Below are positions 2-5,541 of a stretch of DNA of 5,541 nt, one piece after another. This stretch comes from a virus. Lineage: Duplodnaviria > Heunggongvirae > Uroviricota > Caudoviricetes. The notes under the pieces were generated by a model. That model was not told where the DNA came from, searched no databases, and was given only the letters and a program-made list of their open reading frames with translations. The DNA is taken from positions 1-5,541 of the IMG/VR virus record IMGVR_UViG_2579778899_000001; one strand, 5' to 3'. Each line of letters starts with the position of its first letter. Within the stretch, counting starts at the first letter, position 1. The translations under genes and the position numbers were made by a program.

Positions 2-154
2 ATCAGCCTGATGCTGACCGAGCGAACGCTGGTCAGTGAGGTGGACGGCGCACTGCATGTGAAGAATATCCCGGAACCCCCGCCGCCGGAGCCGGTCACC
101 CGCCCGATGGAGCTTTATATCAATGGCGAACTGGTGAGCAAGTGGGATGAATGA
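2..154 (+). CDS. 3' end of a tail completion protein gene (gpR-like), 5'-truncated by the window edge
   Basis: Frame 2 is open from the window start to TGA at 152-154 (…PEPPPPEPVTRPMELYINGELVSKWDE*). High-GC codon usage matches the downstream structural genes. Its stop overlaps the start of the next gene (ATGAATGA), as expected for coupled late genes. Assignment to gpR rests on synteny with P2 (R precedes S), not on recognised sequence. Confidence 0.5.
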   Translation: MSLMLTERTLVSEVDGALHVKNIPEPPPPEPVTRPMELYINGELVSKWDE

Positions 155-599
155 GTTTAAGCGTTTTGAAGACCGGCTGACCGGACTGATTGAGTCGCTG
201 TCACCGTCAGGGCGTCGGCGGCTGAGTGCAGAGCTGGCGAAGCGTCTGCGGCAGAGTCAGCAGCGTCGGGTGATGGCACAGAAAGCCCCGGACGGCACAC
301 CCTACGCGCCACGCCAGCAGCAGAGCGCCAGAAAAAAGACCGGTCGTGTTAAGCGAAAAATGTTTGCGAAACTTATCACCAGTCGTTTTTTGCATATCCG
401 CGCCAGCCCGGAACAGGCATCAATGGAATTTTACGGCGGGAAGTCGCCGAAAATCGCCAGTGTGCATCAGTTCGGTCTGTCGGAAGAAACCCGGAAAGAC
501 GGTAAGAAAATTGATTATCCGGCGCGTCCTCTGCTCAGCTTTACCGGTGAGGATGTGCAGATGATTGAAGAGATTATCCTGACTCACCTTGAGCGTTAG
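147..599 (+). CDS. S: tail completion / virion morphogenesis protein gpS
   Basis: 150-aa ORF, the size I recall for P2 gpS. The basic N-terminal region (RRRLSAELAKRLRQSQQRRV) and overall sequence look like the P2 gpS family. The start overlaps the upstream stop by 8 nt. GC-rich coding composition. Confidence 0.8.
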   Translation: MNEFKRFEDRLTGLIESLSPSGRRRLSAELAKRLRQSQQRRVMAQKAPDGTPYAPRQQQSARKKTGRVKRKMFAKLITSRFLHIRASPEQASMEFYGGKSPKIASVHQFGLSEETRKDGKKIDYPARPLLSFTGEDVQMIEEIILTHLER

Positions 600-629
600 T
601 TTTATCCAGGCAGAGGCTGATGCGCAATT

Positions 630-664
630 AAACATTGAGCGGCCATGCTGGTCGCTCAATGTTT
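630..664. terminator. Perfect inverted repeat (12-bp stem AAACATTGAGCG / CGCTCAATGTTT, 11-nt loop) between convergent genes; candidate bidirectional terminator
   Basis: Read directly: 630-641 is the exact reverse complement of 653-664. It lies 31 nt past the gpS stop and 7 nt past the minus-strand cargo gene stop. T-runs follow on both strands (TTTAATT on minus, TTTATGAGTGATTTTTATTT on plus), but neither is a clean U-tract. Confidence 0.4.
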
Positions 665-670
665 AGAGGT

Positions 671-1456
671 TTATGAGTGATTTTTATTTGATGCTTTGTA
701 TTCTAAAACCTTCTTATTGGCGTAAAAGAATTTTGTATATGACAGGAATATAACCAGACCTGAAGTGAAATAGACGAGGGATAGTATTAATAATGCTTTT
801 TTGTGACTGTTATTATCTTTAATCTCCTGGCTTAACCATTCGGAGTCCTCCTCGTTTAGCTGTAAGAGCTTATTGCAGGCGATCTCAGGAAGTGTGTCTT
901 TTATAAATACGTTTTGCAGTCTCTTGCAATCGGCAAGGCTATAAGTTTTATTAAATTCAACTGCTTTATTTTTGAAGGATAAAAGAACTTTGTCACTATA
1001 AACATAGTACATCATGTTTTTATATGGTATGCCTATGGCATCCCTTACTATAACGGATTGTTCGTTGTGTATGTAACATGCGAGGAGAATGTAAAAAATA
1101 CTGGCCAGAATTACAATTATTGTTTTAATTATGTGTGGTGGTTTTGTTATGTCACCCCAGATGCGAGTAAGGAAAAAATACGATGTTTTTAGTTTTCCAT
1201 CAATCAGTCCCTGCTGTATCATTCTCACATTTTCAATGCCTGATACATTGATTCCATTAATTATTTTAAATAGTTGAATGTCGCGCCACTTGCGGTCAAG
1301 TCTTTTTAATTTTTTGTCTGAATATCCAAAATTGAAATAATGTGCAATAAGCCTCATAAGGTTACTTTTACCAAAGCTAAAAAATGCTAATACTGCAAAG
1401 CTACAAAGGAAAAAAACGATTAGCCCCCACACATTAGTCACATTATAGCTGACCAT
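671..1456 (-). CDS. hypothetical 261-aa integral membrane protein on an AT-rich cargo island in the S-V intergenic position (orf30-like position of P2); function unknown
   Basis: Uninterrupted 786-nt ORF filling the whole AT-rich island. Strong SD (AAGGAG) about 6 nt upstream of the ATG at 1456 on the minus strand. AT-biased codons with K/N/I/F/Y-rich protein. Three hydrophobic segments of about 20 aa (residues ~9-28, ~108-129, ~221-240; nt ~1373-1432, ~1070-1135, ~737-796) separated by Lys/Arg-rich loops. No catalytic motif recognised. Confidence 0.8.
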   Translation of the reverse strand: MVSYNVTNVWGLIVFFLCSFAVLAFFSFGKSNLMRLIAHYFNFGYSDKKLKRLDRKWRDIQLFKIINGINVSGIENVRMIQQGLIDGKLKTSYFFLTRIWGDITKPPHIIKTIIVILASIFYILLACYIHNEQSVIVRDAIGIPYKNMMYYVYSDKVLLSFKNKAVEFNKTYSLADCKRLQNVFIKDTLPEIACNKLLQLNEEDSEWLSQEIKDNNSHKKALLILSLVYFTSGLVIFLSYTKFFYANKKVLEYKASNKNHS

Positions 1457-1539
1457 TACGCTCTCCTTGAATGTTGTCTGGTAGTTCTACAAATGAATCC
1501 AGATAGCATAACTTTTATATATTGTGCAATCTCACATGC
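1457..1539. promoter_or_regulatory. 83-bp divergent control region between the cargo gene (-) and gpV (+); contains the cargo gene RBS and presumably the late tail-operon promoter (P_V equivalent)
   Basis: Cargo RBS (CTCCTT on plus = AAGGAG on minus) at 1462-1467. Candidate -10 TATATT at 1518-1523 on the plus strand upstream of the V ATG at 1540, with no good -35, as typical for activator-dependent late promoters. Imperfect TGT…ACA dyad at 1472-1491 (spacing 14 or 11, not the N12 I recall for Ogr-type sites). Minus-strand TTGCAC (-35-like, plus coordinates 1523-1528) could serve the cargo gene. All calls are by eye. Confidence 0.3.
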
Positions 1540-2181
1540 ATGAACACTCTCGCAAATATTCAGGAACTCGCGCGCGCACTGCGCAACATGATTCGCACCG
1601 GCATTATCGTCGAAACCGACCTTAACGCCGGTCGCTGCCGTGTGCAGACCGGCGGCATGTGCACTGACTGGCTTCAGTGGCTGACCCATCGTGCCGGTCG
1701 TTCGCGCACATGGTGGGCACCTTCCGTGGGGGAGCAGGTGCTGATTCTGGCCGTGGGCGGTGAACTCGACACGGCGTTCGTTCTGCCGGGGATTTATTCC
1801 GGCGATAACCCCGCGCCGTCTGCGTCGGCGGATGCCCTGCATATCCGTTTCCCTGACGGGGCGGTGATTGAATATGAACCCGAAACCAGTGCACTCACGG
1901 TAAGCGGAATTAAAACAGCCAGCGTGACGGCTTCTGATTCTGTTACTGCCACGGTGCCGGTGGTCATGGTGAAAGCATCAACCCGCGTCACCCTGGACAC
2001 ACCGGAGGTGGTCTGCACCAACAGGCTGATTACCGGCACGCTGGAAGTGCAGAAGGGCGGGAAGATGCACGGCAACATCGAGCATACCGACGGGAAATTC
2101 ACTTCTAACGGCGTTCAGGTGGATGACCACGGTCACGGTGGTGTTAAGTCAGGTGACAACTGGACGCAGGGGACAAAATGA
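1540..2181 (+). CDS. V: baseplate central spike protein gpV
   Basis: The ORF track opens at a TTG at 1522; the first ATG is at 1540 (MNTLANIQELARAL…), giving 213 aa, close to the ~211 aa I recall for P2 gpV. His-rich C-terminal apex (…HGNIEHTDG…DDHGHGG…) is typical of spike tips. The stop overlaps the W start (ATGA). Confidence 0.8.
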   Translation: MNTLANIQELARALRNMIRTGIIVETDLNAGRCRVQTGGMCTDWLQWLTHRAGRSRTWWAPSVGEQVLILAVGGELDTAFVLPGIYSGDNPAPSASADALHIRFPDGAVIEYEPETSALTVSGIKTASVTASDSVTATVPVVMVKASTRVTLDTPEVVCTNRLITGTLEVQKGGKMHGNIEHTDGKFTSNGVQVDDHGHGGVKSGDNWTQGTK

Positions 2182-2525
2182 CAGCGCGTTATCTCGGAAT
2201 GAATCGCAGTGATGGCCTGACTGTCACTGACCTTGAGCATATCAGCCAGAGTATCGGCGATATCCTGCGCACGCCGGTCGGCTCACGGGTGATGCGTCGT
2301 GATTACGGCTCGTTGCTGGCGTCAATGATTGACCAGCCGCAGACCCCGGCGCTTGAGTTGCAGATTAAGGTCGCCTGTTACATGGCGGTGCTGAAATGGG
2401 AACCCCGCGTCACCCTGTCATCCGTTACCACGGCGCGCAGCTTTGACGGGCGAATGACGGTCACGTTAACCGGCCAGCACAACGACACCGGCCAGCCACT
2501 TTCATTAACCATCCCTGTGAGTTGA
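2178..2525 (+). CDS. W: baseplate wedge protein gpW (T4 gp25-like)
   Basis: 115 aa, the size I recall for P2 gpW. SD AGGGGA 4 nt upstream of the ATG. Position immediately after V and before J. Sequence looks like the GPW/gp25 family. Confidence 0.8.
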   Translation: MTARYLGMNRSDGLTVTDLEHISQSIGDILRTPVGSRVMRRDYGSLLASMIDQPQTPALELQIKVACYMAVLKWEPRVTLSSVTTARSFDGRMTVTLTGQHNDTGQPLSLTIPVS

Positions 2526-2529
2526 AACC

Positions 2530-3438
2530 ATGCCGATTATCGACCTGAACCAGCTACCCGCACCGGATGTGGTCGAGGAGCTGGACTTTGAAACCATTCT
2601 TGCCGAACGCAAGGCGACACTGATTTCCCTTTACCCGGAAGACCAGCAGGAGGCGGTCGCCCGTACCCTGACGCTGGAATCCGAGCCTCTCGTCAAACTG
2701 CTGGAGGAAAATGCGTATCGCGAGCTTATCTGGCGTCAGCGTGTGAATGAGGCTGCACGGGCGGTGATGCTGGCCTGTGCAGCCGGTAATGACCTTGATG
2801 TGATTGGTGCCAATTACAACACCACGCGCCTGACTATCACCCCGGCAGATGATTCGACTATCCCGCCGACACCGGCAGTGATGGAGTCTGACACCGATTA
2901 TCGTCTGCGTATTCAGCAGGCGTTTGAAGGCTTAAGCGTCGCCGGGTCGGTGGGAGCCTATCAGTATCATGGTCGCAGTGCCGACGGGCGTGTCGCGGAT
3001 ATCTCTGTCACCAGTCCGTCTCCGGCCTGTGTCACCATCTCTGTGCTGTCACGTGAAAATAACGGTGTGGCATCTGAAGACCTGCTGGCTGTGGTGCGCA
3101 ACGCCCTGAATGGCGAGGACGTCAGACCGGTGGCCGACCGTGTGACCGTGCAGTCTGCCGCCATCGTTGAATACCAGATAAATGCCATGCTTTACCTTTA
3201 CCCTGGCCCCAAAAGCGAGCCCATTCGCGCTGCCGCCGTGAAAAAACTGGAAGCGTATATCACGGCACAGCACCGGCTGGGGCGCGACATCCGACTGTCT
3301 GCCATTTATGCCGCTTTGCATGTGGAAGGCGTGCAGCGTGTCGAACTGGCTGCACCGCTGGCCGACATCGTGCTCAACAGTACGCAGGCGTCTTTCTGTA
3401 CCGAATACCGCGTCGTGACCGGAGGCTCGGATGAGTGA
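2530..3438 (+). CDS. J: baseplate assembly protein gpJ (T4 gp6-like)
   Basis: 302 aa, the size I recall for P2 gpJ. Starts 4 nt after the W stop. Its stop overlaps the I start (ATGAGTGA). Confidence 0.8.
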   Translation: MPIIDLNQLPAPDVVEELDFETILAERKATLISLYPEDQQEAVARTLTLESEPLVKLLEENAYRELIWRQRVNEAARAVMLACAAGNDLDVIGANYNTTRLTITPADDSTIPPTPAVMESDTDYRLRIQQAFEGLSVAGSVGAYQYHGRSADGRVADISVTSPSPACVTISVLSRENNGVASEDLLAVVRNALNGEDVRPVADRVTVQSAAIVEYQINAMLYLYPGPKSEPIRAAAVKKLEAYITAQHRLGRDIRLSAIYAALHVEGVQRVELAAPLADIVLNSTQASFCTEYRVVTGGSDE

Positions 3439-3961
3439 TTCGCGCCTGCTGCCGACCGGCTCATCACCGCTTGAAGTCGCCGCTGCAAAAGCCTGTGCGG
3501 AAATTGAAAAAACGCCGGTCAGTATTCGTGAGCTGTGGAACCCGGACACCTGCCCGGCAAATCTGCTGCCGTGGCTGGCGTGGGCGTTTTCGGTCGACAG
3601 ATGGGATGAAAAGTGGCCGGAAGCGACCAAACGCGCCGTTATTCGCGATGCCTATTTCATCCACTGTCATAAAGGCACTATAGGTGCAATCCGGCGTGTG
3701 GTGGAGCCGCTGGGCTATCTCATCAACGTGACGGAGTGGTGGGAAACCAGTGACCCGCCCGGCACCTTCCGGCTTGATATTGGTGTACTGGAAAGCGGTA
3801 TCACAGAGGCAATGTATCAGGAAATGGAACGGCTGATTGCTGATGCCAAACCTGCAAGCCGCCACCTTATTGGCCTGAACATTACCCGGGACATTCCCGG
3901 CTACCTGTTCGTCGGTGGTGTGGCTTATGACGGCGATGTAATTACGGTTTACCCCGGATAA
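3431..3961 (+). CDS. I: baseplate/tail protein gpI
   Basis: 176 aa, the size I recall for P2 gpI. Start overlaps the J stop by 8 nt. Conserved position between J and the tail-fibre gene. Confidence 0.8.
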   Translation: MSDSRLLPTGSSPLEVAAAKACAEIEKTPVSIRELWNPDTCPANLLPWLAWAFSVDRWDEKWPEATKRAVIRDAYFIHCHKGTIGAIRRVVEPLGYLINVTEWWETSDPPGTFRLDIGVLESGITEAMYQEMERLIADAKPASRHLIGLNITRDIPGYLFVGGVAYDGDVITVYPG

Positions 3962-3971
3962 GTGAGGAATA

Positions 3972-5531
3972 ATGAGCACAAAATTCAAAACCGTTATCAC
4001 CACTGCCGGTGCAGCAAAGCTGGCAGCGGCAACCGCACCGGGAGGGCGGAAGGTCAACATTACCACGATGGCCGTCGGGGATGGCGGTGGTAAATTGCCT
4101 GTCCCGGATGCCGGACAGACCGGGCTTATCCACGAAGTCTGGCGACATGCGCTGAACAAAATCAGCCAGGACAAACGAAACAGTAATTATATTATCGCAG
4201 AGCTGGTTATTCCGCCGGAGGTGGGCGGTTTCTGGATGCGTGAACTTGGCCTGTACGATGATGCGGGAACGCTAATTGCCGTGGCGAACATGGCCGAAAG
4301 TTATAAGCCAGCCCTTGCCGAAGGCTCAGGGCGTTCGCAGACCTGCCGCATGGTCATCATCGTCAGCAGTGTGGCCTCAGTGGAGCTGACCATTGACACC
4401 ACAACGGTGATGGCAACGCAGGATTACGTTGATGACAAAATTGCAGAACATGAACAGTCACGACGTCACCCTGACGCCTCGCTGACCGCAAAAGGTTTTA
4501 CTCAGTTAAGCAGTGCGACCAACAGCACGTCTGAAACACTGGCCGCAACGCCGAAAGCGGTAAAGGCCGCGTATGACCTTGCTAACGGGAAATATACCGC
4601 ACAGGACGCCACCATAGCGCGAAAAGGCCTTGTCCAGCTCAGTAGTGCGACCAACAGCACGTCTGAAACGCTCGCCGCAACACCAAAAGCCGTTAAGACG
4701 GTAATGGATGAAACGAACAAGAAAGCGCCATTAAACAGCCCTGCACTGACCGGAACGCCAACGACGCCAACTGCGCGACAGGGAACGAATAATACTCAGA
4801 TCGCAAACACGGCTTTCGTTATGGCCGCGATTGCCGCCCTTGTAGACTCGTCGCCTGACGCACTGAATACGCTGAACGAGCTGGCGGCGGCGCTGGGCAA
4901 TGACCCGAATTTTGCTACCACCATGACTAATGCGCTTGCGGGTAAGCAACCGAAAGATGCCACTTTGACGGCGCTGGCGGGGCTTGCTACTGCGGCAGAC
5001 AGGTTTCCGTATTTTACGGGGAATGATGTTGCCAGCCTGGCGACCCTGACAAAAGTCGGGCGGGATATTCTGGCTAAATCGACCGTTGCCGCCGTTATCG
5101 AATATCTCGGTTTACAGGAAACGGTAAACCGAGCCGGGAACGCCGTGCAAAAAAATGGCGATACCTTGTCCGGTGGACTTACTTTTGAAAACGACTCAAT
5201 CCTTGCCTGGATTCGAAATACTGACTGGGCGAAGATTGGATTTAAAAATGATGCCGATGGTGACACTGATTCATACATGTGGTTTGAAACGGGGGATAAC
5301 GGCAATGAATATTTCAAATGGAGAAGTCGCCAGAGCACCACAACAAAAGACCTGATGAATCTTAAATGGGATGCTCTGTATGTTCTTGTTAAAGCCCTTT
5401 TCAGCAGTGAAGTAAAAATATCTACAGTCAATGCGCTGAGGATATTTAATTCATCTTTTGGTGCTATTTTTCGCCGTTTGCGTATTTTCATGAAAGGAGA
5501 TCACTCAATAACTTCCATCGAGATCGGGTAA
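3972..5531 (+). CDS. H: tail fibre protein gpH-like (519 aa), with a compositionally distinct low-GC C-terminal portion
   Basis: SD GAGGA upstream of the ATG at 3972. Two copies of the tail-fibre repeat motif QLSSATNSTSETLAATPKAVK. Ala/Thr/Asn-rich shaft-like sequence. A conserved-looking block (WAKIGFKNDADGDTDSYMWFETGDNGNEYFKW) is followed by an AT-rich terminal segment. Shorter than the ~669 aa I recall for P2 H. Confidence 0.75.
   Translation: MSTKFKTVITTAGAAKLAAATAPGGRKVNITTMAVGDGGGKLPVPDAGQTGLIHEVWRHALNKISQDKRNSNYIIAELVIPPEVGGFWMRELGLYDDAGTLIAVANMAESYKPALAEGSGRSQTCRMVIIVSSVASVELTIDTTTVMATQDYVDDKIAEHEQSRRHPDASLTAKGFTQLSSATNSTSETLAATPKAVKAAYDLANGKYTAQDATIARKGLVQLSSATNSTSETLAATPKAVKTVMDETNKKAPLNSPALTGTPTTPTARQGTNNTQIANTAFVMAAIAALVDSSPDALNTLNELAAALGNDPNFATTMTNALAGKQPKDATLTALAGLATAADRFPYFTGNDVASLATLTKVGRDILAKSTVAAVIEYLGLQETVNRAGNAVQKNGDTLSGGLTFENDSILAWIRNTDWAKIGFKNDADGDTDSYMWFETGDNGNEYFKWRSRQSTTTKDLMNLKWDALYVLVKALFSSEVKISTVNALRIFNSSFGAIFRRLRIFMKGDHSITSIEIG
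4505..4697 (+). repeat. Imperfect direct repeat (about 60 nt per copy, 132-nt period) inside the tail-fibre gene, encoding two identical 19-aa fibre-repeat motifs
   Basis: Copies at ~4505-4565 and ~4637-4697 (AGTGCGACCAACAGCACGTCTGAAAC…). Amino-acid sequence is identical (SSATNSTSETLAATPKAVK), with mostly synonymous nucleotide differences. Confidence 0.7.
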
Positions 5532-5541
5532 TAACATTTGA

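Follow-up and report, generated by a model that had tools for sequence, protein, structure and literature searches.

An identical peptide of 19 residues, SSATNSTSETLAATPKAVK, is encoded twice within the tail-fibre gene carried by this viral DNA, and the two coding stretches have diverged at the nucleotide level. This raises the question of what the repeated element is, why its peptide has stayed the same while its DNA has not, and what the nucleotide divergence means for recombination between the two copies. These questions are addressed here with the window, meaning the whole stretch of 5,541 nt that was analyzed, and with related loci from IMG/VR, phage records, and complete Escherichia coli genomes.

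Gene context and identity of the repeat

Open reading frame (ORF) listing and Pfam scans resolve the window into a contiguous block of P2-type tail genes (Table 1). In a megablast search against phage genomes it was 96.6–96.9% identical to phage P2 and P2_AC1 across nearly its whole length, with the P2 match (96.6% over nt 2–5396) covering S-orf30-V-W-J-I-H. The motif-bearing gene, which comes after the baseplate genes V, W, J, and I, begins with a tail-collar fibre domain (PF12571, aa 1–151, E=1.3e-58), continues with two stretches of Phage_fiber_2 (PF03406 x2, E=1.6e-41), and carries a Gp34_trimer-type domain (PF21446) at aa 419–486. A P2-type N-terminal domain, the gene order V-W-J-I-H, and high identity to P2, which together characterize a Peduovirus gpH, are all present, and on these grounds the gene is identified as H, the tail fibre of a P2-like (Peduovirus) prophage.

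Table 1 Coordinates of the genes, repeat elements and insertion sequence in the window.
Feature	Position (nt)	Strand	Basis
S	147–599		Pfam match
AT-rich ORF	671–1456	-	ORF list
V	1522–2181		Pfam match
W	2178–2525		Pfam match
J	2530–3438		Pfam match
I	3431–3961		Pfam match
H (tail fibre), residues 1–502, 3' end cut by an insertion sequence (IS)	3972–5478	+	ORF list, Pfam, P2 identity
Repeat unit 1, H aa 170–213, SLTAKGFTQLSSATNSTSETLAATPKAVKAAYDLANGKYTAQDA	4479–4610	+	PF03406 best stretch aa 170–210, model positions 1–41 of 42
Motif copy 1, 19-aa core SSATNSTSETLAATPKAVK	4509–4565	+	Sequence and translation
Repeat unit 2, H aa 214–257, TIARKGLVQLSSATNSTSETLAATPKAVKTVMDETNKKAPLNSP	4611–4742	+	Second PF03406 stretch; codon-by-codon comparison with unit 1
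Motif copy 2, identical 19-aa core, 7 synonymous differences	4641–4697	+	Sequence and codon comparison
Antisense 72-aa ORF, TTG start, containing TAFGVAASVSDVLLVALL twice	4502–4720	-	ORF list
ISEc12 (IS21-family) left end, inserted into H	5479–5541	+	Alignment with three other insertion contexts

Translation places the two motif copies at H residues 180–198 and 224–242, and their starts lie 132 nt, or 44 codons, apart. Twelve of the 19 codon pairs are identical and the other seven differ only synonymously (AGC/AGT, ACA/ACG, CTG/CTC, ACG/ACA, CCG/CCA, GCG/GCC, GTA/GTT), with no non-synonymous difference. The resulting 57-nt patch is 88% identical between copies, and the longest identical run, 26 nt, occupies the first 26 nt of the motif. 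A repeat search found that the longest direct repeat of the window is larger than the motif, pairing 93 nt at 4473–4565 with 4605–4697 at 76% identity. Similarity reaches upstream of the core across the pattern D-A-x-x-x-x-K-G-x-x-Q-L, and the true repeating unit is therefore 44 aa rather than the core alone. This length is comparable to that of the PF03406 model (42) and agrees with a tail-fibre repeat of ~40 residues. The Pfam match scores 140 bits in two stretches, against a gathering cut-off of 22, and by this family assignment the duplicated peptide is identified as two copies of the Pfam “phage tail fibre repeat” (Phage_fiber_2).

The first-pass annotation of this DNA had described an identical 19-aa peptide duplicated 132 nt apart and had named the phage tail-fibre repeat as its likely family. 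Both statements held, the span given for it (4505–4697) being correct to within 4 nt and the Pfam check returning the expected family twice. Its report of several synonymous differences between the copies also stood; the 19-aa motif it described is the core of a longer unit.

The gene itself is damaged. In the ORF list it appears as a 519-aa frame (3972–5531) that runs past H into IS sequence, so that its last 17 codons and stop are IS-derived. Three other genes, namely another H, lom, and gpM, contain this ISEc12 end with annotated istA/istB behind it, and in the other H gene the insertion point lies 20 nt closer to the 3' end. A 72-nt query across the junction (5470–5541) had 6798 match places in 2642 E. 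coli genomes. The possibility that the odd C-terminus reflects another fibre allele or a frameshift was rejected because the sequence is that of the IS end. Intact H relatives measure 669–724 aa, against 502 H-derived residues in the window, and ~180–220 C-terminal residues including the receptor-binding tip are missing by comparison with intact relatives of 681 or 724 aa. The window H is a disrupted family member and not a different family. This copy is already dead in its present genome and no longer under selection, so the repeat pattern it carries records past selection.

Selection on the repeat peptide

Nei–Gojobori counts for the motif give 14.5 synonymous and 42.5 non-synonymous sites. 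Between the two copies pS is 0.48 (dS 0.77), while pN and dN are both 0, and the probability that seven of seven substitutions would be silent by chance is 7e-5. The flanking linkers have a pS of 0.66–0.75, with synonymous sites saturated, and a pN of 0.44–0.59 (dN 0.66–1.15).

The same contrast is observed among relatives. We collected the best 160 of >590 matching IMG/VR loci in two scans; together with the window these make 161 repeat-bearing sequences, among which 118 arrays, with 324 units, are distinct. At 15 of the 19 motif positions the consensus residue is held in at least 95% of these units. Codons vary freely: the 324 units comprise 84 distinct peptides and 224 distinct DNA versions. 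In unit numbering, the invariant or nearly invariant residues are G6, Q9, L10, N15, S16, S18, E19, A22, T24, A27, and K29, and each of these from Q9 onward uses 2–4 codons. Of the 324 units, one lacks G6, none lacks T24, and 299 have P25. Amino-acid drift is seen at unit positions 12 (S/N), 13 (A/V), 17 (T/D/V/M), 21 (L/Q), and 25 (P/S). Beyond these loci, a tblastn search matched the repeat core in 424 phage records, and the core was confirmed gene by gene in lambda-type Stf, D108/Mu S, P1-type S, and the 933W fibre.

Purifying selection on the motif peptide is well supported by this pattern of substitution and conservation, in agreement with the selection on the peptide that had been claimed from the window alone. 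Non-synonymous drift in the motif of related fibres had been put forward as the observation that bears against selection. Some is present, and 16 of 27 two-copy P2-type arrays have 1–3 amino-acid differences between their two motifs, but the ratio still lies far below 1. The perfect peptide identity in the window is therefore one common state and not the rule.

Recombination at and between the repeat units

Alignment of the window with related loci places the repeat at a boundary within H. In the first IMG/VR sample, similarity to the window ends at 4690–4699 in 58 of 80 related loci, at 5396–5421 in 12, and at 5477/5478 in 10. The second sample consisted of 80 loci picked for sharing the distal module, and in 57 of them similarity starts at 4490, 4622, 4632, or 4635, positions that correspond to K-G or Q-L in either unit. 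Some of these loci carry another N-terminus (MAVKISGVLKDGTGKPVQNCTIQLKA...), which we take to be of the lambda side-tail-fibre (Stf) type, joined to P2-type distal sequence exactly at the motif, with 1–2 units. D108 has a single unit where the constant part of S ends, and the annotated G-segment inverted repeat follows ~75 nt downstream. Horizontal transfer of tail-fibre genes among unrelated phages, which is the pattern seen here, was reportedly described in work of 1992 that has been cited in the field since. Judged from these directly observed clusters of junctions, the 3' edge of motif copy 2 is the main mosaic breakpoint of H, and the motif is a conserved joint at which an attachment part specific to the lineage meets distal parts that can be exchanged. 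The clustering could partly reflect selection for junctions that fold, as opposed to a locally raised crossover rate. An engineered lambda–P2 fibre fused at H residue 251, nine residues past the motif, was functional (PMC11338833).

Of 5426 complete E. coli genomes, 4026 (74%) contain the motif DNA, at a median of 3 places and up to 26, so substrates for exchange are abundant. This abundance invites the thought that the motif might also be kept, under second-order selection, as a shared recombination cassette that swaps receptor-binding modules between unrelated prophage families and adjusts the number of units (1–5), thereby tuning fibre reach to the thickness of the host surface layer. We regard such an additional role as unlikely.

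Copy number varies widely among relatives. The 118 distinct arrays include 20 with one unit, 33 with two, 25 with three, 36 with four, and 4 with five, and successive units are spaced by exactly 44 residues in 205 of 207 cases. Hits from a large protein search, mostly partial proteins encoded on contigs of ~700 nt, served for alignment and were unsuited to such counts. This series was read directly from the arrays, and the comparison of repeat number among related prophages that had been suggested as a check thus gave one to five units in 44-aa steps. In arrays of at least three units, each internal unit begins like unit 2 (TTARKGLVQL), continues through the motif, and ends like unit 1 (AAYDLANGKYTAQDA), the composition expected from unequal crossing-over within the motif. 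In one relative (L027), nucleotide identity between adjacent units is as high as 100%. The reciprocal arrangement is found in nine loci with a one-copy H, where unit-1 sequence on the left passes into unit-2 sequence on the right as an exact chimera. At least three different crossover intervals can be distinguished among these, all inside the motif: within the 26-nt identical core, at unit nt 72–75, and at unit nt 76–80. In the second IMG/VR sample, 8 of the 24 loci whose N-terminus is of the P2 type are one-copy deletion products. As these chimeras indicate, the motif copies do recombine in nature.

Sequence divergence is known to lower recombination in E. coli and lambda, with a divergence of 12% causing a 100-fold drop with lambda Red and a much larger one with host recombination (PMC3945230). 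The divergence between the motif copies very probably lowers their recombination rate as well. From this it could be argued that the synonymous differences are themselves kept by selection, lowering intragenic recombination and guarding the fibre from deletion and duplication, and several observations fit. Besides the established effect of divergence (PMC3945230), two-copy P2-type arrays retain 5–12 mismatches per 57 nt, with identical runs of 9–26 nt; the seven differences between copies 1 and 2 of the window recur in the relatives compared, among them L001, which also retains all seven; and at those seven sites the one-copy chimeras have, in their flanks, either the unit-1 or the unit-2 variant. 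However, synonymous divergence in the motif (pS 0.48) is below that of the linkers (0.66–0.75), and there is therefore no excess divergence to explain. One-copy deletion products are common (8/24) and arose through at least three independent crossover points, and arrays with identical or near-identical adjacent units persist, which gives no indication that homology is selected against. Simple neutral drift of silent positions is enough to account for the pattern. The recombination-reducing role that had been proposed for the divergence thus found no direct support and is partly contradicted, given that the copies recombine and that their pS lies below that of the flanks, and we judge a selected function of this kind to be quite improbable. 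The synonymous divergence of the motif is ordinary drift following an old duplication.

Conservation of the repeat as a DNA element, whether a recombinase site, a regulatory site, or an RNA structure, is very unlikely. The motif does coincide with mosaic junctions, it lies ~75 nt upstream of the annotated G-segment inverted repeat in D108/Mu, and the first 26 nt of both copies are identical in the window. Yet the existence of 224 DNA versions with free third positions and a nearly fixed peptide is the opposite of what constraint on DNA would produce, the motif copies are direct and not inverted, and the Mu-type inverted repeat lies downstream of the motif as a sequence of its own. A DNA-level site was accordingly rejected, as codons vary freely across the 324 units. 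No invertase gene was found in the window by ORF listing and Pfam, and a gix/cix-type crossover site for an invertase was ruled out, the copies being direct repeats 132 nt apart with no invertase in the window.

That the antisense ORF is a real gene, with its own internal repeat as the selected feature, is barely conceivable: the frame is uninterrupted in the window and in 9 of 12 distinct close relatives, but it has a TTG start, occupies the antisense frame that shares third codon (wobble) positions with H, in which long ORFs arise passively, and has internal stops in the remaining 3 of 12 relatives, where H is open, while the sense frame is strongly backed by Pfam. Sharing of wobble positions also makes conservation of this ORF a low-power test. 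The ORF contains TAFGVAASVSDVLLVALL twice because this peptide is read from the reverse complement of the sense repeat, and it is an artefact of the sense-strand repeat, as the first-pass annotation had held.

A probable shaft module and its counterparts in other fibres

With these alternatives weighed, we consider it highly probable that the two copies are adjacent 44-residue Phage_fiber_2 units of gpH, that the units are shaft modules under peptide selection, and that their DNA serves as a homology patch for recombination. Each unit would be a structural module of the fibre shaft, directly distal to the N-terminal baseplate-attachment domain. The invariant Gly would start a short beta-strand (KG-x-x-QL), SSATNS-x-SE-x-LAA would form a compact core, and the invariant Thr-Pro would open a helix (PKAVK...), which would bundle with its two counterparts about the three-fold axis, like the mixed alpha/beta fibrous repeats of T4 gp34/gp12. 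We propose that the need for three chains to interlock keeps the core peptide under strong purifying selection, whereas third codon positions drift, leaving an identical peptide on diverged DNA. On this reading the conserved patch of ~60–90 nt provides homology inside one gene, from prophage to prophage, and even across phage families that are unrelated. Homologous recombination there changes the number of repeats, which is 1 to 5 units in relatives, and joins one proximal fibre part to various distal receptor-binding parts. The number of units may in turn affect the length of the fibre.

Literature models point to the same placement. In a 2026 cryo-EM preprint on P2, gpH is a homotrimer in which an N-terminal adaptor is followed by “two repeat domains (RBPseg-D19)”, the D19 assignment coming from a fitted AF3/RBPseg model (10.64898/2026.09.14.750843). 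According to the RBPseg paper, the D19 copies of gp34-like fibres are similar to the T4 short tail fibre. In the T4 gp34 crystal structure a conserved Gly turns the chain and starts a strand, and the gp34/gp12 repeat has a conserved [ST]-Pro before the helix that forms a three-helix bundle (PMC5537660). These hallmark residues are present in the P2 unit as G6 and T24-P25, and from the motif hallmarks and the literature models we infer that the P2 repeat unit is a mixed alpha/beta shaft module of the gp34/gp12 type; the mapping of G6 and T24-P25 onto the gp34 consensus is likewise putative. An AF2 monomer model of H residues 150–300, built from a 50-sequence alignment and unreliable overall (mean pLDDT 46.5, pTM 0.16), has helices at PKAVKAAYDLAN and PKAVKTVMDETNK, right after each T-P. 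A profile of 11 diverse units searched against all PDB sequences (E≤1) gave no match to gp34/gp12 chains. The repeat-bearing PDB sequences recovered by whole-protein and repeat-profile searches are Mu gpS entries only, and a Mu cryo-EM paper modelled only an unspecified N-terminal part of gpS, with no statement on residues 113–156; PDB sequence searches found no experimental atomic structure of the repeat.

The repeat is already known and ordinary, being a curated Pfam family with two gpH repeat domains in the P2 structure preprint. A literature text search did not find the literal SSATNSTSETLAATPKAVK peptide string in papers. The comparison adds a clean natural series of 1–5 units and nucleotide-level crossover maps in a 57-nt, 88%-identical patch. 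It also confirms the motif's 3' edge as a natural and functional site at which engineered chimeric fibres can be spliced, consistent with the lambda–P2 join at residue 251.

The P2 gpH is a textbook protein and the closest known counterpart of the window H. The UniProt entry for it (P26700) has the same two-unit array, the same N-terminal domain, and the same position in the tail cluster. Residue 215 is I in the window (TIARKG) and T in the close relatives retrieved (TTARKG), and distal of nt 5396 the window H carries an allele other than that of P2.

Among other fibres, PF03406 is found in lambda Stf, Mu/D108 S, P1-type S, and Stx-phage fibres as a unit of 40–44 residues like that of P2 H, with KG-x-V-QL-SSAT-[ND]-S-x-SE-T-x-AAT-x-KAVK as the common core. 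In all of these fibre types the unit sits in the shaft, proximal to the exchangeable distal part. The example genes of the other types have one unit each by the pattern used, whereas P2-type H has 1–5; two-copy alleles also exist in lambda-type Stf. The N-terminal attachment domains are unrelated, with a collar and an Ala/Ser-rich coiled coil in lambda Stf and a tail-collar domain in P2. The mixed alpha/beta repeats of T4 gp34/gp12 (PDB 5NXF/4UXE) are comparable in that they form modules of ~33–47 residues in a trimeric shaft, and the P2 and gp34 repeats fall into a common, model-based RBPseg class, D19. They differ in the loop from Gly to Thr-Pro, which is variable in gp34 but shorter and conserved in the P2 unit.

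Interruption of gene H by ISEc12

The tail-fibre gene H is interrupted by the left end of ISEc12, an IS21-family element, and the final 17 codons and the stop of its ORF are derived from the insertion sequence. Because this truncation removes the receptor-binding C-terminus of the fibre, the tail-fibre gene is non-functional in its present state. Similar bases directly abut the IS end in three of the four ISEc12 insertion sites compared, a resemblance between pre-IS sequences that caused BLAST matches to overrun the true IS boundary by a few bases and that hints at a target preference of the element. Further clusters of similarity breakpoints among relatives fall in the distal half of H and suggest, from sequence comparison, additional module boundaries beyond the repeat.

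Coordinates of features in the window and in comparison loci
Feature	Location	Strand	Remark
261-aa ORF	window 671-1456	minus	between S and V
Distal breakpoint clusters	window 5115-5149, 5396-5399, 5478		distal half of H
Pre-IS sequence CGCCGTT	window 5472-5478
ISEc12 left end	window 5479-5541		IS21-family; interrupts gene H
Pre-IS sequence CGACTTT	L167 ~3202-3208		comparison locus
Pre-IS sequence CGCCGTT	L168 ~3202-3208		comparison locus
D108 region holding the repeat unit	L084 1501-1702		Mu-like phage
HK629 region holding the motif	L083 2501-2683		lambda-like phage

Reverse-strand ORF between S and V

The reverse-strand ORF lies in an island of 33–36% GC, compared with 55–60% GC in its flanks, and its product gave no Pfam match. 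Its counterpart in phage P2 is the region annotated as orf30, a moron-like insert.

Dispersal of the motif DNA

Motif DNA, queried with window positions 4617-4700, is a dispersed repeat of E. coli and was detected in 4026 of 5426 complete genomes, with a median of three and a maximum of 26 places per genome; 1815 of the places are on plasmids. Among the database relatives of this region (P0001-P0120), most bear the annotation of a partial tail-fibre protein, and contigs of only ~250–800 nt are the source of many. Breaks in short-read assembly at the multi-copy repeat may be the reason.

Position of the repeat in D108 and HK629

The Mu-like phage D108 carries a single repeat unit that ends ~75 nt ahead of the inverted repeat annotated for the invertible G segment; this position puts the unit right where the constant portion of fibre gene S ends. 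In the lambda-like phage HK629, the annotated fibre ORF ends 13 codons past the motif (…KAVKVVMDETNRKAHWTVRH*) and is followed by a second fibre ORF, an arrangement reminiscent of laboratory lambda, in which stf is split.
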